Source: Chlamydiota bacterium
GTDB lineage: Bacteria; Auribacterota; JACPWU01
Length of the DNA: 32,000 nucleotides
Assembly (NCBI GenBank): GCA_016196885.1
Contig: JACPWU010000042.1
Coordinates: forward strand, 9,724 to 41,723
Reading direction: 5' to 3'
Shown here: positions 5,790-32,000 of the stretch, piece after piece
Numbering within the stretch: position 1 is the stretch's first letter
How the letters are laid out: each line of letters opens with the position of its first letter
Notes under the pieces: generated by a model
Seen by the model: the letters and a program-made list of their open reading frames with translations, nothing else
The model's database searches: none
Told to the model about the DNA's origin: nothing
Program-made: the position numbers and the translations under genes

Positions 5790-5821
5790 AAAAAATCTCC
5801 TTTATCTGTCATTGTAAGTCG

Positions 5822-6257: not shown

Positions 6258-6307
6258 ATTAAACCTTTTTATGATGTACTTGATTTGTCATCACATTCGC
6301 TCTTTTT

Positions 6308-6387: not shown

Positions 6388-6407
6388 TGAGCCTCACTTT
6401 CGAGGTT

Positions 6408-10646: not shown

Positions 10647-10866
10647 TAACTCCCCTAACCCAGCAAGGGAGGCTGCACTGCCAGTGGCAGTGCAAAGCCG
10701 ACTGCGGTAGTAAATGTTTTTTTACATTTCTCCTCTTATTCTAAGAGGGGAACTCTCCTGCCCTGTGCAAGGGGCGCTTTTTACTCTCCCCTTATTTCAA
10801 GCCCTTACAAGATTTTATAGTCCCCGCGGGATAGTCCCTGTGGGAAAGGGGAGTCGGAGGGGTTAA
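10647..10866. repeat. Composite family-D palindromic element, inverted relative to the 8597-8765 copy, 16 nt upstream of the atpI start.
   Basis: taactcccctaacccagcaagggaggctgcactgccagtggcagtgcaaagccgactgcggtagtaaatgtttttttacatttctcctcttatt... ends ...ggggagtcggaggggttaa. Confidence 0.8.
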
Positions 10867-12264: not shown

Positions 12265-12366
12265 TTAAACATTAGCGAGACGATGAAGGAGTTCAGAGAT
12301 AAAGGTCTGGTATCGAATACCCAGTTTCTTTGCTTTGTGCTTCAAGTTTTCTTGATCCGTCAAGCG
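12265..12366 (-). pseudogene. C-terminal remnant of a BrnA/CopG-like (ribbon-helix-helix) antitoxin gene, truncated at a family-A REP element.
   Basis: The minus-strand translation RLTDQENLKHKAKKLGIRYQTFISELLHRLANV* matches the remembered ...L..lKa.A...GipYQtlI...L pattern of BrnA-type antitoxins. There is no plausible full-length start, and no partner toxin is upstream. Confidence 0.4.
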
Positions 12367-12424
12367 TAGTCGCCCGATTTATCGGGCAATCCATGCATGG
12401 CCCCATAAATGGGGCGACTACAAA
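12366..12424. repeat. REP-like element family A, copy 3 (variant with a longer central spacer).
   Basis: gtagtcgcccgatttatcgggcaatccatgcatggccccataaatggggcgactacaaa. Confidence 0.8.
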
Positions 12425-15500: not shown

Positions 15501-15624
15501 AGTTTCTCCCCAGGCGGGAGGGCTTAAAGCGCCTCCGATCCGACGCGAATTACCGAAGGTGGGGCGAAACGATCTTTGTCCGTGTGGGAGTGGGAAGAAG
15601 TATAAGAAATGTTGTGGGATGTAA
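12556..15624 (+). CDS. secA: Preprotein translocase ATPase SecA.
   Basis: Track ORF trimmed to the ATG at 12556 (AAGGAG 7 nt upstream): [23 protein letters not shown]... Walker [44 protein letters not shown], and the C-terminal Zn motif [14 protein letters not shown]. Confidence 0.97.
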
Positions 15625-15775
15625 CTCCCTAGATTCCCCTCCCTTGATGGGAGGGGCTAGGGGAGGGTGGGTTTTTAAATGCCACCCCTCCTCCCCTAAC
15701 CCTCCTCATCACCCCGAAAGGGGCCGTTTCACGGAGGGGGAGGGAATTTTAAGACAGTCTGGGGAGTGGGTTGTC
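15622..15775. repeat. Family-D-like G/C-run palindromic element beginning at the secA stop codon; possible secA terminator/3'UTR structure.
   Basis: The TAACTCCCT terminus includes the secA TAA. Hairpins cccctccc-ttga-tgggagggg and ggggagggtggg-tttttaaatg-ccacccctcctcccc. Right boundary approximate. Confidence 0.6.
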
Positions 15776-15817
15776 AAAGTTATTTGGTGCTTTTATTGTT
15801 AAACTCCGTGTTAAATC

Positions 15818-17353
15818 ATGCATAATCGCTTTTTTCTCTCTATTCTTTCCTCTTTTCTCCTTTTCTTAGCCCTGGAAAATATTCTGGGGGGAGTGACTGC
15901 CTGGATTGCTTTGATTCCGCTTTTTTATCTATTGGACCAGTTAGAGACTCCTCGGCAAACAGGTTATGGGTGTTTTCTAACGGGATTTATTCATTATCTC
16001 TCTGTGGCCAGTTGGTTGACACAAGTGACGGTTGGGGGATATATCGCTGTTTCTCTGATTTTGGCAAGCAATTGGGCTCTTTTTGGGTGGCTTTATAAAA
16101 GATGGGAGATGGGGAAAAAGACTTGGGGGATTTTAGCGATTGCTTGTTCTTGGGCTTTTTTAGAATATTTGAGAAGTGTCGGTGATTTAGGCTTTCCCTG
16201 GTTTTTTCTAGGCTATTCTCAAGTTTCTCATTTAGCTTTTATTCAATCGGTAAGTTGGGGTGGGATTTTTGTTCTTTCTTTTTTGATTGTGTGGGTGAAT
16301 GGGGTTCTTTATGAAATTCTGTTTCTGAAAAAGAAATCTCTTTTAAGAAAATGGGTTTTAACAGGGATATCTCTTTTTTTCTTAAGCTTAAATTTTTTAT
16401 ATGGCTATTTCCGTTTGAAACATTTTTCTCTTGGTGAGATTTTAGATCCAATTAAAATTGCTGTGATTCAAGGTAATATTCCTCAAGGGGACAAATGGGA
16501 TTTAGATCAAGAGGAATGGATTGTTCGGCGATATGCACGTTTGACTTTTCAGGCTGCAAAAGATCACCCCGATTTAATGGTGTGGCCAGAAACGGCCTTG
16601 CCTGCGAACTTAAAAACAGATGAGCATTTGCAAGACGAAGTTATGGGTCTGGCTCGCAAGACGGGAAGTTTTCTTCTCATCGGTGGAAGTGATGACCGCT
16701 ATGATACTGAAAGGGTGGTGACGAATGCCGCTTTTTTAATCGGCCCGGATGGGCGGCTCAATGACCAATACGATAAAATCCATTTGGTGCCGGGAGGAGA
16801 ATATGTCCCTTTCAGAACTTGGTTTCCATGGATAGCCAATATGACTTTGGGGGAGATTGATTTTTCCAGAGGAAACGCCTATAAAGTTTTCAAAATGGGG
16901 GAATGGACCTTTTCGGCTGTGATTTGTTTTGAAGATATTTTTCCAGATCAAGTACGTCGTTTTGTTCGCAAGGGTGCCCATTTGATGGTGAATTTAACGA
17001 ATGATGCGTGGTTTGGGATCTCATCGGCGGCCCAAGAGCATTTGAATTTGGCGCGTTTCAGTGCCATTGCCAATGGGGTGGGCATGGTCCGGGCGACCAA
17101 CACGGGTATTTCAGCTTTTATTTCTCCGGTGGGAGAAATTTTGGAAACGGTTCGAGATTCTATCGGAAATGAGCTTGAAGTGGAAGGGGTAGCGGTTCGT
17201 GAAATATCTCTTCAAACACTTCCCACTTTTTATCAGAAGTACGGAGATGTTTTTTCTTGGGTTTGCGGCTGTGTTGTTTTAATATTCGGAGGTTTTGTGT
17301 TCACGAAGAAAAGGAGATCCTCACATGATCAGCGAAATCAAAGAAAGAATTGA
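15818..17353 (+). CDS. lnt: Apolipoprotein N-acyltransferase.
   Basis: 511 aa. Multi-TM N-terminal half followed by a CN-hydrolase domain (MVWPETALP, AVICFEDIFPD, NLTNDAWFG). Confidence 0.9.
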   Translation: MHNRFFLSILSSFLLFLALENILGGVTAWIALIPLFYLLDQLETPRQTGYGCFLTGFIHYLSVASWLTQVTVGGYIAVSLILASNWALFGWLYKRWEMGKKTWGILAIACSWAFLEYLRSVGDLGFPWFFLGYSQVSHLAFIQSVSWGGIFVLSFLIVWVNGVLYEILFLKKKSLLRKWVLTGISLFFLSLNFLYGYFRLKHFSLGEILDPIKIAVIQGNIPQGDKWDLDQEEWIVRRYARLTFQAAKDHPDLMVWPETALPANLKTDEHLQDEVMGLARKTGSFLLIGGSDDRYDTERVVTNAAFLIGPDGRLNDQYDKIHLVPGGEYVPFRTWFPWIANMTLGEIDFSRGNAYKVFKMGEWTFSAVICFEDIFPDQVRRFVRKGAHLMVNLTNDAWFGISSAAQEHLNLARFSAIANGVGMVRATNTGISAFISPVGEILETVRDSIGNELEVEGVAVREISLQTLPTFYQKYGDVFSWVCGCVVLIFGGFVFTKKRRSSHDQRNQRKN

Positions 17354-18423
17354 GAAAGCGGCTTTGAAATTAAAAGAACTCCAGAGGTATCTTTGACTAC
17401 GAAAATGAGGTCACGAAATTAAAAGAATTAGAAGCGGTGATGGCCCAGAAGAATTTCTGGGATCAGGGTGAAAAGTCTAAAAAAGTCATTGAAGATTTAA
17501 AGGTTCTTAAAGCTAAATTAGAACCTGTTACTCATCTTGAGAAAAAATTCCACGACTTAAAGGCGATGTTAGATCTGGTCAGAGGAGAAGATTCAACCGA
17601 GGCTCAGGAATTGCTGAAAGAATTGGGAAGCGAGCTTTCTTCATTTGAAACGGACTTGGGAGATATTGAAATTCACAATCTTTTGGCCGGCGAATACGAT
17701 AAAAATTCTGCGATTTTGACCATTCATTCCGGGGCGGGTGGGACGGAATCTTGCGATTGGGCGGACATGCTCCTTCGCATGTATCGCCGATGGATGGAGC
17801 GCCATCACTTTAAGGCAGAGGTGGCGGACATTTTACCGGGGGAAGAGGCGGGTGTTAAAAGCGTGACTTTGCTGGTGGAAGGGGATTACGCCTACGGTTA
17901 TATGAAGGCGGAAAAGGGCGTTCATCGTTTGGTGCGGATCTCTCCCTTTGATTCTAATAAGAGGCGCCACACCTCTTTTGCGTCGGTGGATGTGATTCCT
18001 GAAATCACAGACGATATCCCGGTGGATATTGACGAAAAAGATTTAAAGATTGATACGTTTCGCGCGAGTGGGGCGGGTGGGCAGCATGTGAATAAGACAG
18101 ATTCAGCGGTTCGCATCACGCATCTTCCCACCGGTATTGTGGTCTCCTGCCAGAACGAACGCTCTCAGTACAAAAATAAATCCATGGCCATGAAAATTCT
18201 TCGGGCCAGGGTTTACGATGTAAAGCGTAAAGAACAGGAAGAAAAAATGGCCAAAGTCTATGGCCAAAAGTCAGACATTGCCTGGGGAAGCCAGATCCGC
18301 TCTTATGTCTTTCAGCCCTACACCTTGGTGAAGGATCATCGTACTTCGGTTGAAACTTCCAATGGGGATGCGGTGATGGATGGGGATATTGATTTATTTA
18401 TTCAAGCGTATTTGAGGCAGTAG
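17325..18423 (+). CDS. prfB: Peptide chain release factor 2, made by a programmed +1 frameshift (join 17325..17393, 17395..18423).
   Basis: ATG 17325 (AAGGAG upstream) gives MISEIKERIEKAALKLKELQRYL, then in-frame TGA at 17394. The +1 frame continues DYENEVTKLKELEAVMAQKNFWDQ... and contains the RF2 motifs SPF (RISPFDS) and GGQ (SGAGGQHVNKT). Confidence 0.93.
17385..17397 (+). promoter_or_regulatory. prfB autoregulatory +1 frameshift site.
   Basis: AGG TAT CTT TGA C: internal SD-like AGAGG, 3-nt spacer, slippery CTT, UGA stop followed by C. Almost the same as the E. coli site (AGG GGG TAT CTT TGA C). Confidence 0.9.
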
Positions 18424-18425
18424 AG

Positions 18426-18701
18426 TTAAGCCGCTTTTTTATGATGAAGTGGAACATAATTTGGGAACATGAGAGTCCCGGGATGAATCCCGAGCGCTTC
18501 GGCAATTTGAGAAGCCCGTTTTCTGCCTAAAGGAACATGGTTATGCTCGAGCATGGATAGATTCTGAGCAGAAATTCCAGACCGTTTAGCTAATTCTTCT
18601 TGAGTCCATCCCTTGAGTTTCCGGAGCTCGAGAATCGTTTCTCCAGAGGTTAGTTCTATTCTGGTTTTTGCTGGAAAATACTCCTTTCCATCCCTCTTCA
18701 T
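18426..18701 (-). CDS. XRE-family helix-turn-helix antitoxin (HigA-like).
   Basis: Track ORF trimmed to the ATG at 18701: MKRDGKEYF...ILELRKLKGWTQEELAKRSGISAQNLSMLEHNH (HTH_3-type). Lies 14 nt downstream of the toxin gene. Confidence 0.75.
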   Translation of the reverse strand: MKRDGKEYFPAKTRIELTSGETILELRKLKGWTQEELAKRSGISAQNLSMLEHNHVPLGRKRASQIAEALGIHPGTLMFPNYVPLHHKKAA

Positions 18702-18715
18702 GTGATGGACTCCTC

Positions 18716-18988
18716 TTAATAATGGTGTGGCGTTATTTCTTCCACTCGAACCAATAAGGCATCCCACTCAACGGTGTAGATGACTCTGTATTTTAGACTT
18801 AATCTTGACGATCTTTCATGGGCCCTTTTACCCTTTAACTTCTCGTCGTAAAATCCTTTAAATTTACGAAGGGTGTGAGGACCATTCAATTGCACGATTG
18901 ATTTCCATAGTTCGTACTTTCTCTGTACCGCATCAGGAAGCTTCCAGAAAACTTTTTCGAAGTCTTTCAATTCGAAAATATCCCACAT
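18716..18988 (-). CDS. RelE/ParE-superfamily toxin (HigB-like gene order, toxin first).
   Basis: Track ORF trimmed to the ATG at 18988: MWDIFELKDFEKVFWKLPDAVQRK...LKGKRAHERSSRLSLKYRVIYTVEWDALLVRVEEITPHHY (typical L.G...ysiRi...yRviY.v....v.v..i..HhY C-terminus). The longer version runs towards the tRNA. Confidence 0.7.
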   Translation of the reverse strand: MWDIFELKDFEKVFWKLPDAVQRKYELWKSIVQLNGPHTLRKFKGFYDEKLKGKRAHERSSRLSLKYRVIYTVEWDALLVRVEEITPHHY

Positions 18989-19120
18989 CCCCTCAGGATA
19001 TCTTCTTATATATAAGAAGTCAACAGAAAAAAATTCGTTTGTAACGAGGGGCATGAGGTGATACATTCTAGCTTCTAACTTTTGAGATTCATGACCCACG
19101 ATTGATTGTCCACGGTTTTT

Positions 19121-19194
19121 CGGGCCGTAGCGTAGCCTGGTAGCGCACCTGAATGGGGTTCAGGGGGTCGGGAGTTCGATTCTCCCCGGCCCGA
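19121..19194 (+). tRNA. tRNA-Pro (anticodon GGG); CCA not encoded.
   Basis: Hand-folded cloverleaf: acceptor CGGGCCG/CGGCCCG, D arm GCGT-AGCCTGGTA-GCGC, anticodon arm CCTGA-AT GGG GT-TCAGG, variable loop GGGTC, T arm GGGAG-TTCGATT-CTCCC, discriminator A. Confidence 0.9.
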
Positions 19195-19271
19195 TGTTTT
19201 TCTTTGTTATGAAAGTGGATGATGGATCATGGATGATCGATGTTGGATTCCTTTCTCTCGTTCAAGTTTGT

Positions 19272-19434
19272 GTAGTCGCCCGATTCATCGGGCAGCCCCA
19301 TACTCAAGAGGCCATATTCCACCCTACAGGGGTGATTCTTCTGGTGATAGTTTCCAGCCTCTTTATCCTGAGTACTGTCAGAATTGTACGAATCAAACTT
19401 AATGAACTGACTTGTAAATGGGGCGACTACAAAA
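19272..19434. repeat. REP-like element family A, copy 4, split by an internal insertion of about 115 bp.
   Basis: Left half gtagtcgcccgattcatcgggcagccccat (19272-19301) and right half aaatggggcgactacaaaa (about 19416-19434) are separated by unrelated sequence. Next to it, cattgcacacgatgaccccc-aaaaa-gggtcattg (19458-19501) has an inverted relative at about 1272-1300. Confidence 0.7.
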
Positions 19435-19557
19435 TAAGGGAGGAGAGGTAGAGGTGGGCGAGGCTTTCATTGCACACGATGACCCCCAAAAAGGGTCATT
19501 GAAATTAATTGATTTAAAGTCTTGACTTTCATAAGATATGTATAGTATTTTAGTGGT

Positions 19558-19788
19558 ATGAAAATGAAGACATCTATCACACTCTCAGAAGATCTTTTGA
19601 AGTTGATTGATCATCTTACGGGCAAGTCCATGAATCGCTCTGAATTGATTGAGCTTGCCTTGCGGGAGTATCTTCTTCAGAGGGCTAAGAGAGTCAGGGA
19701 CTCAAAGGATTTAGAGCTGATCAATCGCCATGCGGATCGTTTGAATAAACAGGTTCAGGATACGCTTTCTTTTCAGATACCGATATGA
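19558..19788 (+). CDS. Ribbon-helix-helix (CopG/MazE-like) antitoxin.
   Basis: 76 aa. [39 protein letters not shown] = beta-strand/helix/helix RHH pattern. Its stop overlaps the toxin start (ATGA at 19785-19788). Confidence 0.7.
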
Positions 19789-20120
19789 GAAGAGGTGATT
19801 TTTACAGAGTCCATAAAGCCTCATCCCGGGACCCCAAAGATTCTCGCGTTTTTATGGTTGTCAGCCGTCAAGTCCTTATTGATTCGAATTTTTCAACGGT
19901 TGTTTGTGCCCCTATCTATAGCTCTCACGATGGATTGTCCACTGAAGTAGAGGTCGGGATTGAAGAGGGACTGAAACATGCGAGCAGTATTCGCTGTGAC
20001 GAATTGATGAGTATTCCTAAGTCTGTCTTGACCCACTTTGTGGGTGCTTTGCTTCCGCAGCGAATCAAAGAGTTGGATAAGGCGCTTGGATTTGCGCTTG
20101 AATTAGATAACGCTTCATAG
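19785..20120 (+). CDS. MazF/PemK-family toxin (mRNA interferase-like).
   Basis: 111 aa. MRRGDFYRV......[28 protein letters not shown]...[29 protein letters not shown] fits the rGD.y.v...P.vvvS....n....v.v.P.ts......ev.....GL...S.v..d.i.ti pattern. Confidence 0.7.
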
Positions 20121-20130
20121 AAATACTAAA

Positions 20131-21999: not shown

Positions 22000-22147
22000 G
22001 GGTTTTAGCTCCAATGAAATTAAATATCATAATCCATTATATCACAATGGGTTATGATCTTAGGCCTTTTTTGTCTGATAGCGTTTTGACGTTTAGGGGT
22101 GCGCTATTGTCTATTATAGGAAGATTCAAAATATCATAGGCAAAGGC

Positions 22148-25100
22148 ATGTTTTCTATCTATCATAAAATTATATCCATAAGATTTTGGGCTGCAGTCAT
22201 TTGCATCTCATTTTCCATTCAGAGTCTATTTTTGGATACGGGGTGGGCGCAGGAAAGAATGATGGATGTTGGAAGTTCGAAATTGGAGGGAAAAGCCGAG
22301 CGAACTGTTGTTCCATCTAACATCCAACCTCTATCCTCCAACGTCAATGTATCCACCAAACTTGGCGACATCCTTGAACGCCATCAAGGAAGCAGTGACA
22401 AACTCATCATCCACATCCAGGACGTGCACTGTCATTTTGAGGCGCAAAGTAACAGCGCCAAAATCATGAACGAGCTCATGAAAGAGCATGAAGCGCATGG
22501 GCTCAAAATGATCGGGCTTGAAGCCGCAGGGGGAGAGGTAGACACAAGCAAATTCACCGCCTTCCCAGATCCTGCAATCCGCAAAATGCTGGCCGAATAC
22601 CTCATGAAAGAAGGAAAAATCAGCGGCGCGGAATATTTATCGATCGTCAAAAACAAGCCCCTGCCACTTCAAGGGATAGAAAACATGAAAGAATACTTCA
22701 CGCATTTGGTTCAATTTGACAGAGGGCAAGAGCTTAAAAGTAAGGCAGAGCCTATTCTTCAAGGAATAGAGAAACGAATTGAAGGCTTAAAAGAGGAAAT
22801 CTACTCAAAAGAAGTGAAAGAGATTCTAAAAGAGAATGAAAGGTATGCGAGTGGGAAGATAGAACTTGGGGACTACGTAGAATATTTAATCTCGTGCTTC
22901 GCAAACCGTACATCGAACATCGAACATCGGACATCGAACCAAACAGAGTCCGAAGTACGAAGTCCGAAGTACGATGTACGAGTCACACATCCCAATATTG
23001 ATCTCATGCTCCAGATGAGTGAAATAGAAAAGAATTTAGATTTAAAAGCAGTCGAAGAAGAGCGAATCAAGGTGATAGAGGAATTAAGCAAGAGTCTTGT
23101 GAAAGAAGAAGTGATAGAGCTCATGACGAAGAGCTTATATTACCGCTTAGAAAAAATGGATGCGTGGGAATACTATGAATATTTAAAAAAGCTCATAGAG
23201 CGAAACACAGAGGGTCAAAGGTCAAGAGTCAAGGATCAGGAAAATAGGGACCAGAGTAACTCCCCTCTTAAGGTAAGAGGGGATGGGGGAGTTATGAAAG
23301 ACAAAGGAAGTTATATAAACCTCACACAATACATCCAAATGACCGAGCTCTACCACCAAATCGACAGCAACGTTCTCATGAAAGAATGCGAAGAATTAAG
23401 CCAAAGCGTCCTGGATCAAACGCTCAAGAGCCCAGAAGAAAAGGGGCTACACAAGATAGAAGAAGACTTTGCGCTCTTAAAGAACCTCATAGAGATAGAG
23501 CTCAAGAAAAGCCAATACAAAATATATTTAGAGAACAAAGAGAGGGTCACATTTAAGAGTATCGTGGAAAGGATCAATGAAATAGCGGTTCAAGAAAGTA
23601 AAGGAATTAACTCCCCTCGATCCCCTCTTAAAATAAGAGGGGAAGAGAAACAAGAGACGGAGGAGTACTCCCCTCTTAAAATGAGAGGGGCTGGGGGAGT
23701 TAATATTTTAGCCAAGACGCAAGACACCATCACCTATCTTGATCAACACCTCAAAGACACAGAAGCCTTTTACGAATATTCAGACACCCGAGAAAAGTCA
23801 CTGGTCGAGAACACGCTCACCAAGATGGAAGAAGAGAAGAGCCCGATTGCGATTCTCTACACAGGAGGTTTTCACACCGATGGCATGATGGAGCGACTAA
23901 AGAAGGAAGGGGCTTCTTATGTGGTGATAGCTCCCAGAATTACAGAATTCAAACTGAAGACCCCTTATTTATCTATTATTAAGAATGAGCCCAATGAACT
24001 AGAAAAAGCAATAAAGGGAATTCAAAAGAAAGAAGGATCAAATTTAGCTCCTTTAAAACATGGGGTAGATATAAACGCATTGAGGGGATTGATGGAGCGT
24101 CTCCCCCTCAATGATCCTCGTAAAGAGACCATTCAAAGAGTTATAGATGCAGATAAAACACTCGACCTCATGGCGATCTTCTTCGTAGAGCTTCTTTACG
24201 TGGCACAGTTGTGGGAAGCCCAAACCCCTGAAATTCATCTTCAGGAAATTTATGACTCAATGATGGAAAAATGGAAAGGACTTATAGGTGATGTTTTTGA
24301 AAAACAAATAGGAAAAAAAGTTATTTTTAATATTCAGGGAGCCAGTCGATCTAAGAATGGAGCGTTTTATATTCCCATCCGGATAGAAGGAGGGGAGGGG
24401 TTATATCTAAAACTGACTCAAGAAACAAAATTTGATGATGTGAAAGAATATCCAGAAAAATATTTGGTTACAGGACTACCTCACAGTGCTGCGAATGATT
24501 ATATTCAGAGGCATCTACCGGAAGATTTAAGAAAAAACAAAGACGAAATAAAAAACTATCCTCAACACAGTTATTTAAACCCTACTACGATAGGAAAAAC
24601 AGTGCAAGCCAGAGTGATTCCCATTCCAGGACTCTTTGAAGCGACGGGGCAATTGGGGCATATTGGACTAGGGCAGGTTTATGGAGAGCCTGTCATTTAT
24701 GTGGACGCTGATTATGATCCTCGGAAAGCAAAGACTGAGGGAGAGGATGCCGAGACAGTACTAAACCACGAAGCCTATGAAATTACAGGTTGGGAATCGA
24801 AGAGTATAGAGTTGGGTAAAACTCCATCTCAAATGAGAATGTGGATTCAAGATAGTAATCATTTTGAAGAAGCAAAGGCTTATGCAAAAAAACTTCACGA
24901 ATCTGCGCCGTCTGTAGATGAAATCATTAAAAAAAGAAGGGGGAGTCTGCAAGGCTGTATTGAACAGCACTTGGCAATGGCCCAAGAAATTTATGAGGAC
25001 GAGGAAGGGGATATTAATTTAGAGGCGGGAATGGATGAAAAAAATGGGGTCCTGTTCTTACAGGGGGAAGAGAGTGAAAGAGTTTTGCAAACAGAAGATC

Positions 25101-28100
25101 AATGGATTCCTTTGGATGGGTTGATTGGATATCTGAGGCAGGTGACAGGGGAGACAGGTGGGCGGGATTATGGAGAATGGTTTGATCATCCTGAAAGTTT
25201 AGCGCAGGCAGTTCAATCTTTTGGAGGAGAACCGGCTCGTGTGGGTCCTTTGATTCATCAGCAGTCGGACTATGAGAATCAGGCGGCGGTTGAGCTTGTG
25301 GCCAATGGGATTGACGCTATGCTGGCTCTGGCCCAAGGAAAATTTCCAATCGGTCGGTTTGGAGTGGGAGCCTTTCAGGTATTGCAGGAATTGGAACATG
25401 AAGATGATGAAGTGGTTTGGACCAGCTCTCGTGATGGCATAACGGCCTGGCGGGTTACGGTAAAGCTCAAGGACAATCGTTACGTCGTTCGTTTTAGCAA
25501 AGTTACTCAGGGTGTTAGCCAAGGAACAAAAGTTCAAGTGCATCATCAGCTCTATGCAAAAAAACAGCAGAAAGACCTTAAGGATTACTTGGAGGAAAAA
25601 CTGCGCTATAACAATAAAGTAAAGATCATGGTGAATGGAGTACATATTAATTCTCTAGAGGGTCTTACCTATCAAAATGGTGGGAGCCTCAACTATGAAA
25701 TGGCGGGCCAGATTAATATCCTCATCGATGAACATGGATACATTGTTACGGATGATGGAACGGGTATGGATGCTGAGGCCATTTATACGAAATTGCTGCT
25801 TCCCAGGGTGGGTCAAGGATATCGAGGAAAACCGGACGGTGAAAGTAGTGCAGACCATACCCGTCTCTTTTACCGCCAAAGTGAGAAGAGTCCAAGAGAG
25901 AAGACAAAGGTACGTGTAGGAATATTGGTCAGTGGCGTCCAGATCGAAGGATTTGAAATTGAAGGATATAACCTACCTCAAGATTTTGTTCTGGAGCTGC
26001 CCTATTGGACGCACTTGACGGAAGGCCGGAACAAAATCTCGCTGGATGAGTTGACGCTCGAGGCCTTGGAGATCACACTTGACAAGATCTTTCATGCACC
26101 GTCAAATCTTCAGCCTCAGCTTGTCAATGCCTATGCGCTTCTATTAAAACATTTTGCTGAGGACTCTGCGAGAAGAGACCTTGTAGAGGAATTAAAAATA
26201 ATATTTATTCAAAAAATTGGGAATTGGAAAAAGGCTCAACCAAACAAAATATGTCTTCCCAATGAAGAAGGGTTTATGGCCGTTCAGCTTCCAGAGCATT
26301 ATGAAGCAAATTATTTAGACACTTGGGCAAATCCTCTGAGGCCTCAAGAAATTGTGGGGGTCCAAAAGGTGAAAGAATGGAGAAGCAATCGAGGATATAG
26401 CTTATGGACCATTCCCATGGCGGATGCCAAAGACCCCTATTTTATCAGTGGAAAGTATATTTTTGTTGATGAGAGTCTATATAGAACGCAAGAAGATGTG
26501 CCTGCTGCTATAGATCTTGTCGTGAATCCCGTAGATGTGGATTATGGCATTCCAGAAGAACCCTATGGAAGTTTGGAGCCTGCGGAAGAATCTATAAAAA
26601 TAAAGACTCTCGCAGAGAAGACAAAATCAGAAGTGATGGCTCCAGATCTTCAAGAAAAATGGGATGCACTTCTAGGTTTATCCTCCAGCCAAAAAAGAGA
26701 GGTAAGAGAGTTCATTCGACACTATGGCCCCGAAAATCATGAGGCTGTTATGAAATGGCTCGAAAGACTTCAATCATTTTCCAATCTTGACGGATGGACG
26801 GAGGTCTTTTCAAAAATATTGCCTGGAAACATGAGAATGGATTCTAAAAAAAGAGAAGGGCAGGGATTTTACTTTATCGGAACTCCATTCCAAATGGGAG
26901 AAAAGTGGTGTGTCGTGGTATGCCAAAAAAAGGAAGAGCCTCGTAAACTTGCCGAGATCAATCCTGCCAATGGTTACATCACAGTCCCGAAAGGAGCAAC
27001 GGGATTCTACAATATCAGGACACCTTTTAGAGCCGGAGAAAATTGGTTTGTAACGGTAGAACGAGAAAAAGACGGTCCTCAATCCTTTGCGAAAGTAGAT
27101 TTGGCAACGGGCTTAGTCGAGCTTTCTCGGGGAGCAAATGGGTTTTTATCTATTGGAAAACCGGTTCAGATAGGACAAAAGTGGTTTGTCATAACGGGTG
27201 GTCAACACGGTTACATTGCATCCCTTGCCAGGTTTGATCCTGAAACTGGGATTGTCAAAGTTCCTGATGGAGCAAATTCTTTTAATGGCATGTCAGAGCC
27301 CTTTCAAATGGGAAATCAATGGTTTGTAAATGTCACGATTGTGAATTTACAAAGTTTGCATGCCATTGCTCGTATTGATGAAGAAAGAGGAATCGTAGCG
27401 GTACCTGATGAATTAGGCAATTTTGACATAGTTGAAACCCCGTTTGAAATTGGGAATAAATGGCATGTGATTGTAAAAAAAGAGGGTTTTTATACCCTAG
27501 CTAAAGTGGATCCTGGCAGCGGTCAAATCACGGTTCCTGAGGATGCCAATGGGTATTACTATGTCAATGGACCTATTCGAATTGGTAAAAATTGGTTTGT
27601 CCAAGTTCAGAAAGAAAAGGATGGACCGCATACACTGGCGAAAATAGATTTTCGGGATGGGTCAATAATATTACCCAAAAGGGAAACGACGAATTTTCGT
27701 TACATTGACAGTCCATTCCAAATAGGAGAGAAATGGTTTGTCGGGGTAGGAGGCCATCCAAGTAATTTAGGGTCTGCTTTTGCTTCTGTCGATCCTGAGA
27801 CAGGAGAAATATCATTACCCTCTTCATGGGTAGAAGCAATAGATCATTTTGGTTCTATACTGGATCAGAAAACTTGCATTCAAATAGGAGAAAAGTGGTA
27901 TGCGAAAGTTGGGGAAGGAGTTAGAGGCCCCTGGACACTTGCCGAAGTAGATCCCAATACGGGTCGCATCACGATCCCTGGGCATGCGCAGTGGTTTTCT
28001 ATTATTCGAGTGCCCTTTCAGTTAGGCACAAAATGGGTTGTGGAGGTTTCTGAAAAATTAACAGATCCGCATGCATTTGCTGAGGTTGATCCTGAAAATG

Positions 28101-31100
28101 GGCTTATGAGAATTCCATATGGAGCAAGGTATTTAAAGTCTATAAATGGCCCCTTTAGCCTTGTCGAAAAACAGTATCTCCATGCGAAAGAAAATTCTTA
28201 TGATGATTCTGAATTTATGATTTCTATTTCCGCAACCCCGTTCAGGCAAGGAGAGTGGGGAGAGTTAGAGTTTAGCACGGTAGAAAAATCTCTTCGGGAG
28301 TTGTACATTCTGTTTCATGATGTCCCCGGGTCTCGCGAAAGGTATTTAGAAAATCTATTTTATCTACCCGCCAGGTTTTCCGATCTTTTTGAGAGCGATT
28401 TCTTTCATAGACTCTTGGCCTTATTCCCGACGGATCTACTACAGCATTTGAGTCCCAAAACCGCTGGGGTTCTTACAGGAGTTTTAAAAACGATGACAAC
28501 CTCACGTGTTCAAGGATCGTTTCTTTCCTTTTTTGATCGTGTCGATCTGGGCAGCCTAAATGAGACGGCGCTTGAGGCTGTGATTCATCGTTGGGTGAGC
28601 ATCTGGAATATTGTGGGATCAAATGTGAATGCAAGGAATAGCCTATTGGAGGGGCTGGAGCGTTATCCAGATTTTCTATCCTCTGAATTTGATGTGCAAG
28701 GAGTCCAAGATCTTTCTCTTATGCTGTATATGTGGATACTAAGAGGGGAAGAAGAAGGTATGGGGGAAAAAAAGAGCCCGCATTTGACACGTAGAGATAT
28801 CACTAGATCTATAACTGATATTCCTCTTGCTAAAATTATTCAAGCTTATCGGGAAAATCCCTCAGGAGTTCGTGGCATTCAATCTCTGGCAGATTATGAG
28901 CAATATCTTCAAGCTGTTCAGAAAAAGAAAACGGATGCGGTAGAAAGTGAAATTGCTTCCGCTCAAGAAGGGCAAGATACCACCGATCAACTTTATTTAA
29001 GAGAAAATGTTCAAAACGCTCGAGATGCCATGGATGAAAAAGAGATAGAGGGCCCTGTTGAAGTGGATAGCTATATTGAAAAAGGGACTGAAAATTGGGT
29101 GGTCTCAGTGGAAGACAAGGCGGGAACGGATATTGGGACATTTTTGAGTGATTTTTTTGTGCCCGATCTTACGACAAAGAAGGGAAAGGGGCTTGCGGGG
29201 ATTATGGGTCAAGGGGTTTACACCAACTTCCTTGACTTTGATGAACTGCGAATCAAGACAGGAACAGGGAAGAACGGAAAGGCCTATTACGCCGTTCTTC
29301 ATAGGGATAGATCGGGAAAGATTATTTTAAAAAGCCTTGAAGAGGTCAATGATTCTTATCAAGGGACGAGGATAGAACGGGTCAAACGACAGTGGAATAT
29401 TGAAGAATCTGCTGTTTGGAATGCATTAACCGCTTCGAATCTCAGGCGATATGTGGGAGGTGTGAGTGATCGAGAAATTCTTTTTAGAGGGAATCGTATG
29501 AATGATCCACTGACTGTCTTAAGCGAAGTGAAGACAAAATGGGGGACCTTATCCATCAAGCTAAGCAAGGCAGGGTATCGCCGTGTGACTCAAAAGGGCC
29601 TCTACCTTCAAACTCCGAATGAAGAATATCTGGCCCTTGTTCCAGAAAAATACAAGAAAATGCTCTTGGAAAGGGGGCTCAATATTGATTTACCTCCAGA
29701 ACTTTCACTCACCCGTTCCAGAACGACCCTGGCTAAAAAAGGGAAAAACAAGAAGGCCATTCAGCAAGCCGTTGCCAAGGGCGTACTAGAAGCAATCGTC
29801 AGGCTTTATCTCGAAGAAGGAGTCATCCCGCCGGGCCTTTCGGAAGACTATTTTGATTCTCCTGTGATTCATGGAGGAGGGCTCACAAATTTTGAACGAT
29901 ACGCCCGTGAGGCCGTTGGAACTTTTGGAGAGGGAAAAGAAGTGAAGGGGGATGCAAATTTTATCAATCAAGGAAAATGGGCCCAAGTCAAGTTTGAAAA
30001 ATATCTTATTCAAGAAAAAGATTCGGACGAATTAAAAGAAAAGAAGAGCCGATCCTTGGCTTATCTCATGAGTCTTATTGAGGTGGAGCAGGGAGGGGAG
30101 ACGACTTCTCTTGAAAAAATGCGGCAGACATTTTTAAATGCGATGAGAGGTAAACAAAGTGTGGAGTCTCTAAAATCAAAACATCGGGGTCTAGAGAAAT
30201 ACCTAAAGCAATCAGAAGAACTTGTGAATAGAAAAGTGGCTGCGATCGACACTCCGCGAAGAGATATTGATTTGAAGAAAGAAGAACCCTATCCGGGGGT
30301 AAGAAAATTTGTGGAATTGACACAAATTGGATTACAAGCCCTAGGTCGCAGCGACATTCAGGTAGGAGTTTACGAACGGGAAGAGTCTCGATTAGCGGAC
30401 TTTGGAGATCATCTCCTGATGTGGAATTTACTTAGGATAAAGACTGAGCTTGCGGCTTTAAATAACATTCTTTCGGGCGAAGCTAGCGCAATAGAAAAGA
30501 ACAAGTTCTTTAGGTGGTTTCTACATTACCTTACCCATGAACTCTCCCATTTTGCTGATCAAGGAAAGGCCTCACATCAGAAAGATGACTCTCTTGTGGG
30601 CCTCTTGGCATGGAATCAGAAAGAACTATTGAAGAAATTCCTAAATGCCAAGTTGTCATGGGATGAGATAGAGAGAAGACTTAATTCCGGGGACACAGTA
30701 TTTAATTCTGCCACCTCAGAAGCTGGAATGGCCCCGCTGATGAGTCTTGTACTGAATTGGTTTGGGATTCCACGTGAAAAGCAAGCGGGGTATGAGCAGG
30801 TGGGTTATTTAGCAGCATTTATCATCATTGTTGCAAGTATAGTTGCTTCGACACCATTATTGATGCAAGGCTTTTTGGGGATGATGGGGGTGGCGGGAAT
30901 TTTTATTTTGATTCATCCCTTGAGTTATTTCGTCATACGAATTTTTGAAAAATTATTGGGCTGTCAGCTGATGCCTCAAGGGCCGCCTCTCAAGGGGATG
31001 GTTCTGGGCGCAATGAAAGTGGCCTTGGCGAACACCCTTTCCCTCATTCCTGCTTACCTTCTCTACATGAATTCTCATCCAGCTCTTGCGATCGTTGCGC

Positions 31101-32000
31101 TTCTTTTTTACATTCCTGCGAGTAGATACCATCACGAGATGAATTTGGGGTTTTTAAAGAAGGCAAGATTAGAAAATTACGATGCAACGGCAGCGAGTCT
31201 CTTTTCAACGATGGCGAGCCTGTTTTCAAGAACCTTAAACTCTTCAAAACTAACTTTGCCCTTCAGATCATTTTTGATCAATCTTACATCCGATTCGATG
31301 CGATTATTACTTTCTTCGAGTTTGGCGATCCTTGCTTCGATGCGCAAATTGCTTTCTTCAAGCTTGGCGATTCTTCCCTCGATCTTGGTGAATCTCTCCT
31401 TGGTTTCATACCGAAAGCTCAGCAGGCTATTGGAAAGAGCCTCGAATCTTTTTTCAGATTTTTCTGACTCTTCATCAACTTTGTTGCGAAGGGCAACGAC
31501 GTTTTCTCCAACAGCCTTAAACTGGCTTCGCATTTCTTCGATAAGAACGGCATTGTACCGCTGGATATCGTCTGTCGGAAGAGGTTTTGGAGATTTCTTT
31601 TCTTTCATGAAAGGAATCTTACATCCTGAGTCAAATCGAGTCAATTGGAATAATGGATCAGCAGATGTCGTGACCCCATTGCCAAAACGAACTCCCTCCG
31701 CCATGAAAGAATATAGCGGAGAGGATAAAGATGTTGCAGCGTTTCATGAGCGCTATAAGACTGAAGCTGGGTCTATTGGGGGAGAGCAGCTGGAGAGAAT
31801 TCGTACAAATGTGATTCGTGCCTGGGGAGACCTTTCTCGAGAAGGCCTTAAAGCCCTGAGGGAATTGGGGCTTACGCGGGATGGGGTCATTGAGCAATTT
31901 CGGAGAATAGATAATAGAACTGAGATAAAAATTGGGAAAGCGAACTATGCCGTGAACATTCACTGGCGGGAGGGCCCTTATGAATTAAAGGGAGTCAAAC
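22148..32000 (+). CDS. Giant multidomain protein, 3' end outside the window (at least 3,284 codons with no stop). Coding is confident for 22148 to about 31140; the stretch 31177-31700 conflicts with a minus-strand ORF.
   Basis: Hand translation of frame 2 finds no TAA/TAG/TGA from 22097 to 32000. The translation is protein-like and purine-rich throughout 22148-31140. Motifs: IIHIQDVHCHFEAQ / IGLEAAGGE / YTGGFHTDG; ELVANGIDA + IGRFGVGAF; about 10 x (PFQIGEKWFV...VDPETG.I.VP); LRENVQNARDA + VEDKAGTDIG + GIMGQGVY; THELSHF; C-terminal TM helices. Confidence 0.85.
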   Translation, partial: MFSIYHKIISIRFWAAVICISFSIQSLFLDTGWAQERMMDVGSSKLEGKAERTVVPSNIQPLSSNVNVSTKLGDILERHQGSSDKLIIHIQDVHCHFEAQSNSAKIMNELMKEHEAHGLKMIGLEAAGGEVDTSKFTAFPDPAIRKMLAEYLMKEGKISGAEYLSIVKNKPLPLQGIENMKEYFTHLVQFDRGQELKSKAEPILQGIEKRIEGLKEEIYSKEVKEILKENERYASGKIELGDYVEYLISCFANRTSNIEHRTSNQTESEVRSPKYDVRVTHPNIDLMLQMSEIEKNLDLKAVEEERIKVIEELSKSLVKEEVIELMTKSLYYRLEKMDAWEYYEYLKKLIERNTEGQRSRVKDQENRDQSNSPLKVRGDGGVMKDKGSYINLTQYIQMTELYHQIDSNVLMKECEELSQSVLDQTLKSPEEKGLHKIEEDFALLKNLIEIELKKSQYKIYLENKERVTFKSIVERINEIAVQESKGINSPRSPLKIRGEEKQETEEYSPLKMRGAGGVNILAKTQDTITYLDQHLKDTEAFYEYSDTREKSLVENTLTKMEEEKSPIAILYTGGFHTDGMMERLKKEGASYVVIAPRITEFKLKTPYLSIIKNEPNELEKAIKGIQKKEGSNLAPLKHGVDINALRGLMERLPLNDPRKETIQRVIDADKTLDLMAIFFVELLYVAQLWEAQTPEIHLQEIYDSMMEKWKGLIGDVFEKQIGKKVIFNIQGASRSKNGAFYIPIRIEGGEGLYLKLTQETKFDDVKEYPEKYLVTGLPHSAANDYIQRHLPEDLRKNKDEIKNYPQHSYLNPTTIGKTVQARVIPIPGLFEATGQLGHIGLGQVYGEPVIYVDADYDPRKAKTEGEDAETVLNHEAYEITGWESKSIELGKTPSQMRMWIQDSNHFEEAKAYAKKLHESAPSVDEIIKKRRGSLQGCIEQHLAMAQEIYEDEEGDINLEAGMDEKNGVLFLQGEESERVLQTEDQWIPLDGLIGYLRQVTGETGGRDYGEWFDHPESLAQAVQSFGGEPARVGPLIHQQSDYENQAAVELVANGIDAMLALAQGKFPIGRFGVGAFQVLQELEHEDDEVVWTSSRDGITAWRVTVKLKDNRYVVRFSKVTQGVSQGTKVQVHHQLYAKKQQKDLKDYLEEKLRYNNKVKIMVNGVHINSLEGLTYQNGGSLNYEMAGQINILIDEHGYIVTDDGTGMDAEAIYTKLLLPRVGQGYRGKPDGESSADHTRLFYRQSEKSPREKTKVRVGILVSGVQIEGFEIEGYNLPQDFVLELPYWTHLTEGRNKISLDELTLEALEITLDKIFHAPSNLQPQLVNAYALLLKHFAEDSARRDLVEELKIIFIQKIGNWKKAQPNKICLPNEEGFMAVQLPEHYEANYLDTWANPLRPQEIVGVQKVKEWRSNRGYSLWTIPMADAKDPYFISGKYIFVDESLYRTQEDVPAAIDLVVNPVDVDYGIPEEPYGSLEPAEESIKIKTLAEKTKSEVMAPDLQEKWDALLGLSSSQKREVREFIRHYGPENHEAVMKWLERLQSFSNLDGWTEVFSKILPGNMRMDSKKREGQGFYFIGTPFQMGEKWCVVVCQKKEEPRKLAEINPANGYITVPKGATGFYNIRTPFRAGENWFVTVEREKDGPQSFAKVDLATGLVELSRGANGFLSIGKPVQIGQKWFVITGGQHGYIASLARFDPETGIVKVPDGANSFNGMSEPFQMGNQWFVNVTIVNLQSLHAIARIDEERGIVAVPDELGNFDIVETPFEIGNKWHVIVKKEGFYTLAKVDPGSGQITVPEDANGYYYVNGPIRIGKNWFVQVQKEKDGPHTLAKIDFRDGSIILPKRETTNFRYIDSPFQIGEKWFVGVGGHPSNLGSAFASVDPETGEISLPSSWVEAIDHFGSILDQKTCIQIGEKWYAKVGEGVRGPWTLAEVDPNTGRITIPGHAQWFSIIRVPFQLGTKWVVEVSEKLTDPHAFAEVDPENGLMRIPYGARYLKSINGPFSLVEKQYLHAKENSYDDSEFMISISATPFRQGEWGELEFSTVEKSLRELYILFHDVPGSRERYLENLFYLPARFSDLFESDFFHRLLALFPTDLLQHLSPKTAGVLTGVLKTMTTSRVQGSFLSFFDRVDLGSLNETALEAVIHRWVSIWNIVGSNVNARNSLLEGLERYPDFLSSEFDVQGVQDLSLMLYMWILRGEEEGMGEKKSPHLTRRDITRSITDIPLAKIIQAYRENPSGVRGIQSLADYEQYLQAVQKKKTDAVESEIASAQEGQDTTDQLYLRENVQNARDAMDEKEIEGPVEVDSYIEKGTENWVVSVEDKAGTDIGTFLSDFFVPDLTTKKGKGLAGIMGQGVYTNFLDFDELRIKTGTGKNGKAYYAVLHRDRSGKIILKSLEEVNDSYQGTRIERVKRQWNIEESAVWNALTASNLRRYVGGVSDREILFRGNRMNDPLTVLSEVKTKWGTLSIKLSKAGYRRVTQKGLYLQTPNEEYLALVPEKYKKMLLERGLNIDLPPELSLTRSRTTLAKKGKNKKAIQQAVAKGVLEAIVRLYLEEGVIPPGLSEDYFDSPVIHGGGLTNFERYAREAVGTFGEGKEVKGDANFINQGKWAQVKFEKYLIQEKDSDELKEKKSRSLAYLMSLIEVEQGGETTSLEKMRQTFLNAMRGKQSVESLKSKHRGLEKYLKQSEELVNRKVAAIDTPRRDIDLKKEEPYPGVRKFVELTQIGLQALGRSDIQVGVYEREESRLADFGDHLLMWNLLRIKTELAALNNILSGEASAIEKNKFFRWFLHYLTHELSHFADQGKASHQKDDSLVGLLAWNQKELLKKFLNAKLSWDEIERRLNSGDTVFNSATSEAGMAPLMSLVLNWFGIPREKQAGYEQVGYLAAFIIIVASIVASTPLLMQGFLGMMGVAGIFILIHPLSYFVIRIFEKLLGCQLMPQGPPLKGMVLGAMKVALANTLSLIPAYLLYMNSHPALAIVALLFYIPASRYHHEMNLGFLKKARLENYDATAASLFSTMASLFSRTLNSSKLTLPFRSFLINLTSDSMRLLLSSSLAILASMRKLLSSSLAILPSILVNLSLVSYRKLSRLLERASNLFSDFSDSSSTLLRRATTFSPTALNWLRISSIRTALYRWISSVGRGFGDFFSFMKGILHPESNRVNWNNGSADVVTPLPKRTPSAMKEYSGEDKDVAAFHERYKTEAGSIGGEQLERIRTNVIRAWGDLSREGLKALRELGLTRDGVIEQFRRIDNRTEIKIGKANYAVNIHWREGPYELKGVK
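22907..22980. repeat. Palindromic/tandem-repeat element (family F, CGTACATCG...CGATGTACG) lying in frame inside the giant ORF.
   Basis: cgtacatcgaacatcgaacatcggacatcgaac...gtccgaagtacgaagtccgaagtacgatgtacg. 9-bp perfect terminal inverted repeat, with internal 7-nt (catcgaa x4) and 14-nt (gtccgaagtacgaa x2) direct repeats. Translated as RTSNIEHRTSNQTESEVRSPKYDVR. A related cgatgtacgaagttcgacgtacg occurs intergenically at about 1893-1917. Confidence 0.7.
23257..23294. repeat. Minimal family-D palindromic element in frame inside the giant ORF.
   Basis: TAACTCCCCTCTTAAGGTAAGAGGGGATGGGGGAGTTA. Termini TAACTCCCC/GGGGAGTTA with inner stem CCCCTCTTA/TAAGAGGGG. Translated as NSPLKVRGDGGV. Confidence 0.8.
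23608..23702. repeat. Family-D palindromic element (double inner hairpin) in frame inside the giant ORF.
   Basis: taactcccctcgatcccctcttaaaataagaggggaagagaaacaagagacggaggagtactcccctcttaaaatgagaggggctgggggagtta. Translated as NSPRSPLKIRGEEKQETEEYSPLKMRGAGGV. Confidence 0.8.
26864..28275 (+). repeat. About 10 (+1 degenerate) tandem coding repeats of ~46 aa (~138 nt) within the giant ORF; beta-propeller-like.
   Basis: The core recurs at roughly 26885, 27023, 27161, 27299, 27440, 27572, 27714, 27876, 28012 and 28151: PFQMGEKWCV, PFRAGENWFV, PVQIGQKWFV, PFQMGNQWFV, PFEIGNKWHV, PIRIGKNWFV, PFQIGEKWFV, CIQIGEKWYA, PFQLGTKWVV, PFSLVEKQYL. Each is followed by ..LA(K/E)VDP.TG.I.VP.GA. Confidence 0.85.
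31177..31608 (-). CDS. Coiled-coil protein (hypothetical), antisense to the open plus-strand frame. The start could also be the ATG at 31704.
   Basis: MKEKKSPKPLPTDDIQRYNAVLIEEMRSQFKAVGENVVALRNKVDEESEKSEKRFEALSNS...IEGRIAKLEESNLRIEARIAKLEESNNRIESDVRLIKNDLKGKVSFEEFKVLENRLAIVEKRLAAVAS. Clean heptad-like periodicity, TAA stop at 31177-31179, and a purine-rich minus strand here, unlike the flanks. It cannot coexist with a conventional reading of the giant ORF. Confidence 0.5.
   Translation of the reverse strand: MKEKKSPKPLPTDDIQRYNAVLIEEMRSQFKAVGENVVALRNKVDEESEKSEKRFEALSNSLLSFRYETKERFTKIEGRIAKLEESNLRIEARIAKLEESNNRIESDVRLIKNDLKGKVSFEEFKVLENRLAIVEKRLAAVAS

Follow-up and report, generated by a model that had tools for sequence, protein, structure and literature searches.

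A giant gene of an Auribacterota bacterium joins the N-terminal module of a large, unnamed mosaic protein family to a predicted tandem Hsp90-like cassette

Giant mosaic multi-enzyme proteins with signal peptides and transmembrane (TM) helices have been described for the Omnitrophota in the retrieved passages of two preprints (West-Roberts et al. 2023, bioRxiv 10.1101/2023.11.21.568195; 2026 preprint 10.64898/2026.06.07.730766). Other described proteins that resemble parts of the gene analysed here are the TIKI superfamily, which includes the structures HopBA1 and ChaN, whose known members are mostly extracytoplasmic or effectors, and of which the MARTX effector RRSP has a 2His/2Glu-plus-Arg site (E3900, H3902, E3930, R4001, H4030; PMC6254334), and the Hsp90-related giant sacsin (PMC9880540). 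We analysed 32,000 nucleotides (nt) of a Chlamydiota bacterium (GTDB lineage Bacteria; Auribacterota; JACPWU01), positions 9,724 to 41,723 of contig JACPWU010000042.1 in assembly GCA_016196885.1 (hereafter the window), in which one plus-strand open reading frame (ORF) stays open from its first ATG, at 22148, to the end of the window. This giant ORF is a genuine, very long multidomain gene under selection. Sequence comparison places its product in a very large, unnamed mosaic family of Omnitrophota, Auribacterota, Chlamydiota and Elusimicrobia, whose members have in common a signal-peptide-like segment and an N-terminal module (N-module) of ~500 amino acids (aa), while the cargo behind these is exchanged freely. 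In the present gene this cargo consists of a conserved cassette (HExxE domain, permuted GHKL unit, about nine repeats, second GHKL unit, HExxH segment), after which come a TM block and at least one more module.

In the translation of the window the plus-strand frame is stop-free across 22097-32000, which amounts to 3,301 codons and has a chance probability of about 1e-89 given the base composition of the window. A codon-usage model trained on the Pfam-confirmed genes of the window preferred this frame, and never any other, at each 300-nt step of 22148-31148; its log-likelihood was +15 to +23 per 100 codons except over 31180-31608. The uninterrupted frame of ~9 kb, the coding signal, the motifs that do not vary from phylum to phylum and the 37% identity to P0044, a protein of Candidatus Theseobacter exili (Auribacterota), together indicate purifying selection, and the stretch from 22148 to about 31150 is confidently coding. 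An earlier note on this DNA had proposed one real, very long multidomain gene, and the positions that it gave for the N-module, both GHKL modules, the repeats, the HExxH segment and the hydrophobic segments are borne out. It had also remarked that the ORF is absent from the accompanying ORF list; the sole reason is that the list omits ORFs running off the source, and the span appears there as 23 ORFs of at least 60 aa (19 antisense), not as the about 30 that had been counted. The view that the combination lay outside anything described has to be given up: the N-module has more than 10,000 representatives, P0044 has the same architecture, the retrieved passages of the two preprints treat Omnitrophota giants, and the gene itself is in GenBank as HYS08_01955 ('hypothetical protein, partial', 3,255 aa), identical to the giant protein at 3,254 of 3,255 residues. 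HYS08_01955 lies on contig JACOUD010000014.1 (57,650 bp) of the metagenome-assembled genome (MAG) 'Chlamydiae bacterium' GCA_016178005.1, of which the window makes up the last 32 kb; the ORF therefore ends with this contig and has no further sequence by which to extend it.

HYS08_01955 is the same gene annotated with a TTG start at 22232, 28 codons downstream of ATG 22148 and without the signal-like segment. ATG 22148 is preceded by AAAGG, and a segment of basic and then hydrophobic residues, often with a small-x-small end, opens 26 of the 27 family members that could be scored (homologues whose first motif could be located), the exception being truncated. Because this signal-like N-terminus is conserved across the family, ATG 22148, the start chosen in the earlier note, is more likely to be the true one than TTG 22232.

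The whole-protein homology search returned 41 other proteins, all of 1.9-5.6 thousand aa, from Chlamydiota, Elusimicrobia, Omnitrophota and unclassified MAGs. According to the BLAST map, the similarity of 40 of them to the query is confined to its residues ~60-640 and invariably lies at the N-terminus of the homologue (E 1e-176 to 1e-8 for the N-module), and the remaining one, P0007, matches only the cassette. The family is defined here by an alignment and profile of 20 N-modules, in which D92, H94, E125, E162, E178, R548, G573, G574 and H576 are invariant; the query has the ~500-aa module after an N-terminal hydrophobic segment and all the family motifs (IxDxH, LEGA, GxxSGxE, GxE, R and GGxH, located at 22409-23878). 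The profile matched 10,339 of 1.84 billion cluster representatives at E<=1e-3 and 7,223 at E<=1e-30; among the 150 best matches the module starts nearly always at residues 10-100, and many of the proteins have 2-5.6 thousand aa, some being shorter. When one genome of each species was scanned, 504 N-module loci were confirmed, often several per genome, and the best 80 of these 504 come mostly from Omnitrophota, plus Auribacterota, Ratteibacteria and other Planctomycetes-Verrucomicrobia-Chlamydiae (PVC) bacteria. No Pfam or NCBIfam model covers the N-module. The variable parts of the homologues carry Pfam domains of very different kinds (UGPase, phosphoglucomutase, PFK, PPDK/PEP synthase, TIM, malate synthase, glycogen phosphorylase, sigma-70, kinases and methyltransferases), and internal TM blocks are present in many family members.

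The AlphaFold (AF2) model of the N-module (predicted local distance difference test, pLDDT, 80; predicted TM-score, pTM, 0.69) has a beta-alpha-beta core, the strands of which carry IHIQD-x-H, GLEAA, GIE, ILYTGGFH and SYVVIAP; its four low-confidence loops correspond to sequence insertions and to the C-terminal end of the modelled segment. The earlier note had called this region TIKI/TraB/ChaN-like, and the residue pattern agrees with that reading: D92-x-H94, E125 (+31), R548 and H576 (+28), invariant in the 20 sequences, form the ordered catalytic set of the TIKI proteins (2His/2Glu plus a basic residue, in the order E-x-H...E...R...H), with Asp instead of Glu as the first acidic residue, and in order and spacing they resemble the site of RRSP. 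Significant matches, on the other hand, were lacking. Among the family models (e.g. PF04187, PF01963), PF04187 (ChaN, Tiki superfamily) appeared in 7 of the 20 N-modules, always below threshold (best E 3.6e-4, 20.7 bits against a gathering score of 27.7), and covered only the R...GGxH part; excising the helical insertion gave no better PF04187 score, and PDB sequence searches with N-module profiles and single tiles gave no meaningful matches. Foldseek with the whole module was dominated by long-helix proteins, and HopBA1 (E 2.4) and ChaN (E 3.9) appeared amid otherwise all-helical noise. A TIKI-fold hydrolase is a good hypothesis for the N-module, to which the sequence pattern and the model lend weak but convergent support.

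The cassette opens with the small HExxE domain, which is included in the BLAST match to P0049 (query residues 776-1558) and recurs in P0012 (twice), P0050, P0002 and the giant protein of a sister MAG, GCA_016178055.1 (locus L002). Pfam gave no family for this domain, and it may be a processing or docking module. In these giants its pattern, 'beta strands ... HExxE ... W/AH', follows N-modules or TM blocks or stands at the end of the protein.

Both GHKL units carry the N box (ExxxNxxD), G1 (DxGxG) and G2 (GxxGxG) motifs. The first unit, described as degenerate in the earlier note, is indeed GHKL, but ELVANGIDAM (N box), GRFGVG (G2) and DDGTGM (G1), which span 25292-26032, are all intact, so the unit is permuted (order N-G2-G1) rather than degenerate. 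The same order is found in P0044, P0007, P0045, P0047, P0049 and P0051, and the canonical one in P0046, P0048 and P0050; the equivalents of this unit pass Pfam HATPase_c_3 in P0046 (E 5e-11, 43 bits) and P0048 (E 1.4e-17, 64 bits). Between the two units lies the repeat array, for which about ten copies of 46 aa had been claimed; the array is present, with nine clear, anchored copies (residues 1584-1960, period 44-54 aa) and about one degenerate copy. The repeats are probably beta-propeller blades; P0047 has WD40 propellers at the same place.

The second unit (motifs at 29003-29722: ENVQNARDAM as N box, EDKAGTD as a weakened G1, GIMGQG as G2) had been called sacsin/Hsp90-like, and structure comparison upholds the label. 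The query itself does not reach Pfam HATPase_c or HATPase_c_3 (E 0.43); the aligned P0007, P0046 and P0048 do, and unit 2 aligns to the HATPase_c_3 match of P0007 (39.9 bits). An AF2 model of unit 2 and the cassette end, built from 6 sequences, matched PDB structures of the Hsp90 family in Foldseek with a probability of 1.0 (TRAP1 at E 2.9e-11, also Hsc82, HSP90B, GRP94 and HtpG, to 1e-9). There were 313 matches at E<=1e-3, over 450-700 columns and with TM-scores of only about 0.35. As in Hsp90, an N-terminal ATPase domain is followed by a middle domain, and the invariant Arg of LTRSR sits at the place of the Hsp90 catalytic-loop arginine. Neither a C-terminal dimerisation domain nor overall homology to Hsp90 was detected, phmmer against PDB finding no Hsp90 and Pfam no HSP90 match. 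Unit 2 is Hsp90-like by its predicted fold. The HExxH segment pointed out in the earlier note at 30536-30550 is likewise present, and H572, E573, H576 and H585 (HExxH and the downstream His, not in the numbering of the giant protein) are invariant in nine homologues; the model shows a three-stranded sheet followed by the motif helix (pLDDT about 83). Pfam matches no peptidase family in this region, and motif and model together suggest a zincin-like domain.

A second search, with a profile of the query and P0007, found eight further cassette proteins. P0044 shows 37% identity over query residues 976-2842 (1,867 aa) and also has the N-module, so the full architecture is conserved across phyla; P0050 likewise combines N-module and cassette, with a TM block between them. 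P0007, P0045, P0046 and P0048 are free-standing cassettes of 1.7-2.0 thousand aa, and P0047 and P0049 begin with other signal-like N-termini. The P0007 gene (locus L004) lies amid CD-NTase-like, ParB-methyltransferase, resolvase, SET-domain and deaminase genes (3374-7203 and 14305-20083), surroundings that look like a mobile or conflict-type region.

The TM block announced in the earlier note is present, with three strong and up to five hydrophobic helices. What the same note had missed is an antisense gene beyond this block, of which ~143 codons of the formal ORF, close to its end, are the shadow. Over 31180-31608 the codon log-likelihood is -9.8 for the plus frame and +12.3 for the opposite strand, and the plus-frame product past the TM block is rich in L and S (42% together). 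The coiled-coil protein encoded on the opposite strand, which has no GenBank annotation, has a free-standing homologue, P0043 (E 1e-16), in L002, where it is convergent to a 3,108-aa N-module giant gene and ends 50 nt from the giant's stop; the L002 giant additionally holds an internal, near-identical copy of the TM block and antisense gene, with the MKEKK start and the stop kept. The third-codon-position test was uninformative on strand, since the wobble positions of both frames coincide, and amino acid conservation and codon usage were used instead: the coiled-coil frame beat the plus frame in all three pairwise BLOSUM comparisons (209 vs 136, 601 vs 541, 226 vs 135). From the homologue, the conserved start and stop, the better-conserved frame and the codon score we conclude that the antisense gene is real. 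P0043 has a stop-free shadow frame as well, which shows the openness to be inherent in the sequence. A promoter match of the sigma-70 kind (TTGACT-17-TAAGAT), at consensus level only, ends 8 nt before the antisense ATG and would imply a leaderless mRNA. No convincing inverted repeats flanking the antisense gene, as expected of an invertible segment, were found, and a metagenome scan for further copies gave only two weak matches on short contigs.

Coding signal of the giant frame returns in the last 105 codons (log-likelihood +21.8 for 31690-32000), which are 90% (aa) and 91% (nt) identical to residues 780-884 of the L002 giant, where the sequence runs on into ...FLHEVLEH. Window 30682-31612 and 31690-32000 match L002 12652-13732 and 17061-17371, respectively, at 84-94% nt identity. 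Because such blocks sit beside N-modules that are just 48% identical at the protein level, the giant genes appear to exchange blocks. The contig end falls within the repeated module shared with the L002 giant, and a chimeric join is possible there. The giant protein may be translated through the antisense region, since no stop interrupts the frame and both of the differing junctions downstream preserve it. The features are collected in Table 1.

Table 1 Features of the giant gene and of the sequence within it (window coordinates).
Feature	Coordinates	Strand	Remarks
Formal giant ORF	22148..32000	+	3,284 codons from first ATG, stop-free to contig end
Sec-type signal-peptide-like N-terminus	22148..22249	+	Basic residues, hydrophobic core, then GWA/QE; Kyte-Doolittle scan
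Family-defining N-module	22325..24067	+	Residues 60-640; predicted alpha/beta core split by ~380-aa helical insertion
Two 7-nt tandem-repeat arrays	22910..22981	+	ACATCGA x4.3, AGTACGA x5; in low-confidence N-module loop
21-nt palindrome CCCCTCTTAARRTRAGAGGGG	23262-23282, 23622-23642, 23670-23690	+	In frame; SPLKxRG peptides in low-confidence loops
Small HExxE...W domain	24473..24940	+	HEAYE 24767-24781 (residues 874-878); start of cassette
Hsp90-like/GHKL unit 1	25100..26647	+	N box 25292, G2 25352, G1 25751, catalytic-loop-like LTEGRN 26015
Tandem repeats	26843..28282	+	Nine clear ~46-aa copies and about one degenerate; anchor G-x-[KNQE]-W
Hsp90-like unit 2 (predicted fold)	28823..29830	+	N-terminal ATPase and middle domain; N box 29003, G1 29111, G2 29198, LTRSR Arg 29708-29722
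Zincin-like cassette end (predicted)	30254..30685	+	HELSH 30536-30550, conserved downstream His 30575-30577
Transmembrane block	30788..31114	+	Residues 2881-2989; 3 strong, up to 5 hydrophobic helices
Antisense coiled-coil gene	31177..31608	-	143 aa, MKEKK...AAVAS; overlaps giant-ORF codons ~3011-3154
Start of further module (second HExxE-type domain by homology)	31690..32000	+	Cut by contig end; last 105 codons

The explanation that we favour, with a probability of about 0.5, is that this genuine gene of the mosaic family encodes an exported, envelope-tied, effector-like remodelling or proteolysis machine. The Sec pathway would export the giant protein and the TM block would keep it tied to the envelope; the N-module, its D/E-x-H, E, R, H site being intact, would be a hydrolase of the TIKI fold; the two Hsp90-like units would clamp a client bound to the propeller, in the manner of Hsp90 or sacsin, and the clamped client would then be cleaved by the HExxH domain. 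Since the periplasm is without ATP and an ATPase that is exported has to obtain it from outside, the cassette would work in or on a host or prey cell, and an exported, host- or prey-directed role is what we infer to be most likely for the giant protein. Several observations weigh against this explanation. Unless the exported ATPase reaches the interior of another cell, it has no ATP to draw on, and no secretion system was seen near the giant gene in the window or in the surroundings of P0044, P0007 and the giant gene of L002. The TIKI assignment is significant neither by sequence nor by fold, the cassette model is moderate (pLDDT 67, core 75-89), and Pfam, NCBIfam and PADLOC gave no match above threshold for the whole protein or its tiles. 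The free-standing cassettes P0007, P0045, P0046 and P0048 have N-termini without a hydrophobic segment. The product of the gene is a prediction from sequence, with a C-terminus that lies beyond the contig end, and the tail of the ORF includes the shadow of the antisense gene.

The strongest competing reading is a proteostasis machine in the cytoplasm, tethered to the membrane, a bacterial counterpart of sacsin that would act on the cell's own proteins with cytoplasmic ATP, the N-terminal helix and the TM block being merely anchors. We regard it as rather unlikely, although units of this kind depend on ATP and have kept their ATPase motifs and catalytic-loop Arg intact, the free-standing cassettes lack a signal-like N-terminus, and 46% of the long Omnitrophota proteins, the largest class in the retrieved passages of the 2026 preprint, have TM helices without a signal peptide and are read there as anchored on the cytoplasmic face (10.64898/2026.06.07.730766). 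Basic residues before the hydrophobic core and small-x-small sites after it in many members point to an N-in/C-out orientation or to cleavage, the cassette homologues P0047 and P0049 also start signal-like, and the mostly extracytoplasmic or effector nature of the known TIKI-superfamily proteins (PMC6254334) speaks for export as well. The antisense gene and the shared blocks raise another possibility, namely that the giant gene functionally ends near 31.15 kb and that the convergent gene at 31177-31608 (-) and a separate plus-strand gene or module from ~31.7 kb are connected to it by a stop-free shadow frame or a chimeric repeat join. The strand change of the codon signal over 31180-31608, the better conservation of the antisense frame and the open shadow frame of P0043, which lies outside any giant ORF, would all fit such a split, as would the ATG (MKEYSG) at the start of the last block and the L002 matches, which form separate blocks of 84-94% nt identity with a unique joint of 77 nt, one of the blocks containing the contig end. 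Translation reaching that point would nevertheless go on in the absence of an in-frame stop, the second assembly has the same read-through and stays open for ~750 codons more past a different downstream junction, and the indels between the query and L002 copies are all multiples of three; a split of this kind therefore seems unlikely to us.

Two further readings are less probable still. That the cassette belongs to a MORC/paraMORC-type system for conflict or phage defence (GHKL ATPase plus effector protease) and is fused here to a membrane-targeting head is suggested by the CD-NTase-like, ParB-methyltransferase, resolvase and deaminase genes adjoining P0007 and by a weak match of P0046 to the PADLOC model TmtA (E 3.5e-4). 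It is made very unlikely by the absence of PADLOC defence-protein matches for the query and P0007, by a fold match to the N-terminal and middle domains of Hsp90 and not to MutL or MORC, by the lack of defence genes around the giant gene within the window and around P0044, and by the metabolic enzymes that form the other cargoes of the family. A decaying pseudogene or assembly artefact without a functional product, finally, could be suspected from the MAG contig origin and the in-frame repeat and palindrome insertions in the N-module, and is highly improbable for a frame uninterrupted over ~9 kb, with coding signal throughout, with motifs that stay the same between phyla and with P0044 37% identical to it over 1,867 aa.

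In the boldest reading, the N-module family might be an unrecognised, Sec-dependent platform of polymorphic giant effectors, in which an invariant TIKI-fold protease head and the small recurrent HExxE/HExxH domains process interchangeable cargo, be it metabolic enzymes or, in the present gene, a tandem Hsp90-like clamp with propeller and zincin, and release it onto or into host or prey, and in which cassettes are shuffled between paralogues by recombination, including a TM block with a functional antisense gene translated both ways; we consider this reading unlikely. The N-module has more than 10,000 representatives and neither a Pfam nor an NCBIfam match, and a testable TIKI-hydrolase hypothesis would give a handle on thousands of giants in Omnitrophota and other PVC bacteria. 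The tandem Hsp90-like cassette would be a bacterial counterpart of the sacsin design and could show how repeated Hsp90 units work in one chain. The nested antisense gene and the near-identical shared blocks suggest how giant mosaics are built, and they are also a warning that formal ORF lengths in MAGs can overstate protein length.

The remaining observations concern short repeats and the surroundings of the gene. Besides the two 7-nt arrays of the query, the L002 giant has seven such arrays in its N-module (L002 18094-19591), with 3-5 copies per array in both giant genes. Because seven is not a multiple of three, a change of one unit would shift the frame, and the arrays could be a phase-variation switch or merely a linker generated by slippage. 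Palindromic elements are known to insert in frame in Rickettsia genes, which the in-frame copies of CCCCTCTTAARRTRAGAGGGG resemble; a fourth copy is intergenic (10730-10750, minus strand), with 0.02 matches expected by chance, and P0002 carries peptides similar to SPLKxRG. An imperfect ~57-nt palindrome, GTAGTCGCCCGATTTATCGGGC...GCCCCATAAATGGGGCGACTAC, lies upstream of secA (window 12342-12422), and its left part with the 5' flank (43 nt, 91% identical) is also found upstream of the giant gene of the sister MAG (L002 19830-19872); it is probably a dispersed repeat. The neighbours of the giant gene are ordinary chromosomal genes (V-type ATPase operon, secA, lnt, prfB, tRNA-Pro, PemK/RHH pair and a divergent LMF1-DCC gene). 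A search for conserved neighbours, for which the LMF1-DCC gene had been put forward in the earlier note, found none: this gene adjoins no giant gene but that of the window, and P0044, P0007 and the giant gene of L002 have unrelated surroundings. The gene calls for locus L001 place a ribbon-helix-helix (RHH) antitoxin and PemK toxin pair and two small helix-turn-helix genes in the interval from tRNA-Pro to the LMF1-DCC gene (~19567-20123). The RF2 (prfB) ORF (17437-18423) starts at GTG, and its Pfam PCRF match begins at profile position 12; its N-terminal part is probably encoded upstream in another frame. Programmed +1 frameshifting is the classical case in prfB.

Compared with the TIKI superfamily (Tiki, TraB/PrgY, ChaN, erythromycin esterases, HopBA1 and RRSP; PMC6254334), the N-module may have a core of the same kind, a helix-flanked beta-sheet by prediction, with a first strand ending in D-x-H, a later strand ending in GG-x-H and the D/E-x-H, E, R, H order; it differs in the Asp replacing the first Glu, in the ~380-aa helical insertion that splits the core and in the lack of a significant sequence or fold match. 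The MARTX multi-effector toxins, one effector of which (RRSP) is a TIKI-fold protease, likewise run to several thousand residues and combine conserved ends with internal effector modules that can be exchanged. In contrast to them, neither glycine-rich RTX repeats nor a cysteine protease domain was found in the giant protein, its secretion signal, in the sequence up to the contig end, is an N-terminal one of the Sec type and not type I, and the cargo of the N-module family consists of housekeeping-type enzymes and chaperone-like units, not of known toxins. With sacsin and Hsp90 (PMC9880540) the giant protein shares repeated Hsp90-like units in one giant chain and a Bergerat-fold ATP site followed by a middle-domain-like part with the catalytic-loop Arg. 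Of the sacsin architecture (UBL, three SIRPT repeats, DnaJ, HEPN) it has only the repeated Hsp90-like units: Pfam detected no UBL, DnaJ, HEPN or Hsp90 C-terminal dimerisation domain, the units number two, with the propeller-like array between them, HExxH at the end and unit 1 permuted, and the protein is bacterial and has a predicted export signal.

Like the Omnitrophota giants of the retrieved preprint passages (10.1101/2023.11.21.568195; 10.64898/2026.06.07.730766), the query is a very long single ORF of a PVC-related, host-dependent or predatory kind of lineage, with an N-terminal signal and/or TM blocks, arrays of unrelated enzyme domains (HATPase_c and PPDK_N being among the commonest in those giants) and long stretches without a detectable domain, and its N-module is commonest in Omnitrophota genomes. 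It is smaller, with ~3.3 thousand aa or more against more than 10,000-30,000 aa, and Pfam found no SecA_DEAD, C39 or S8 domain in it. With at least 3,284 codons, one TM block and no SecA it also falls outside the 'giant genes' of West-Roberts et al., which are characterised in the retrieved passages by more than 30,000 aa, many TM regions and a divergent SecA_DEAD. These passages of both preprints are silent on the shared N-module, the TIKI-like pattern and the tandem Hsp90-like cassette, and the kinship is by lineage and by the mosaic signal-plus-TM design only. The giant protein is, in sum, a new cargo variant among the known giant mosaic proteins, and what makes it of interest beside them is the identity of its N-module, its tandem Hsp90-like units with a predicted export signal and the antisense gene nested in its coding frame.

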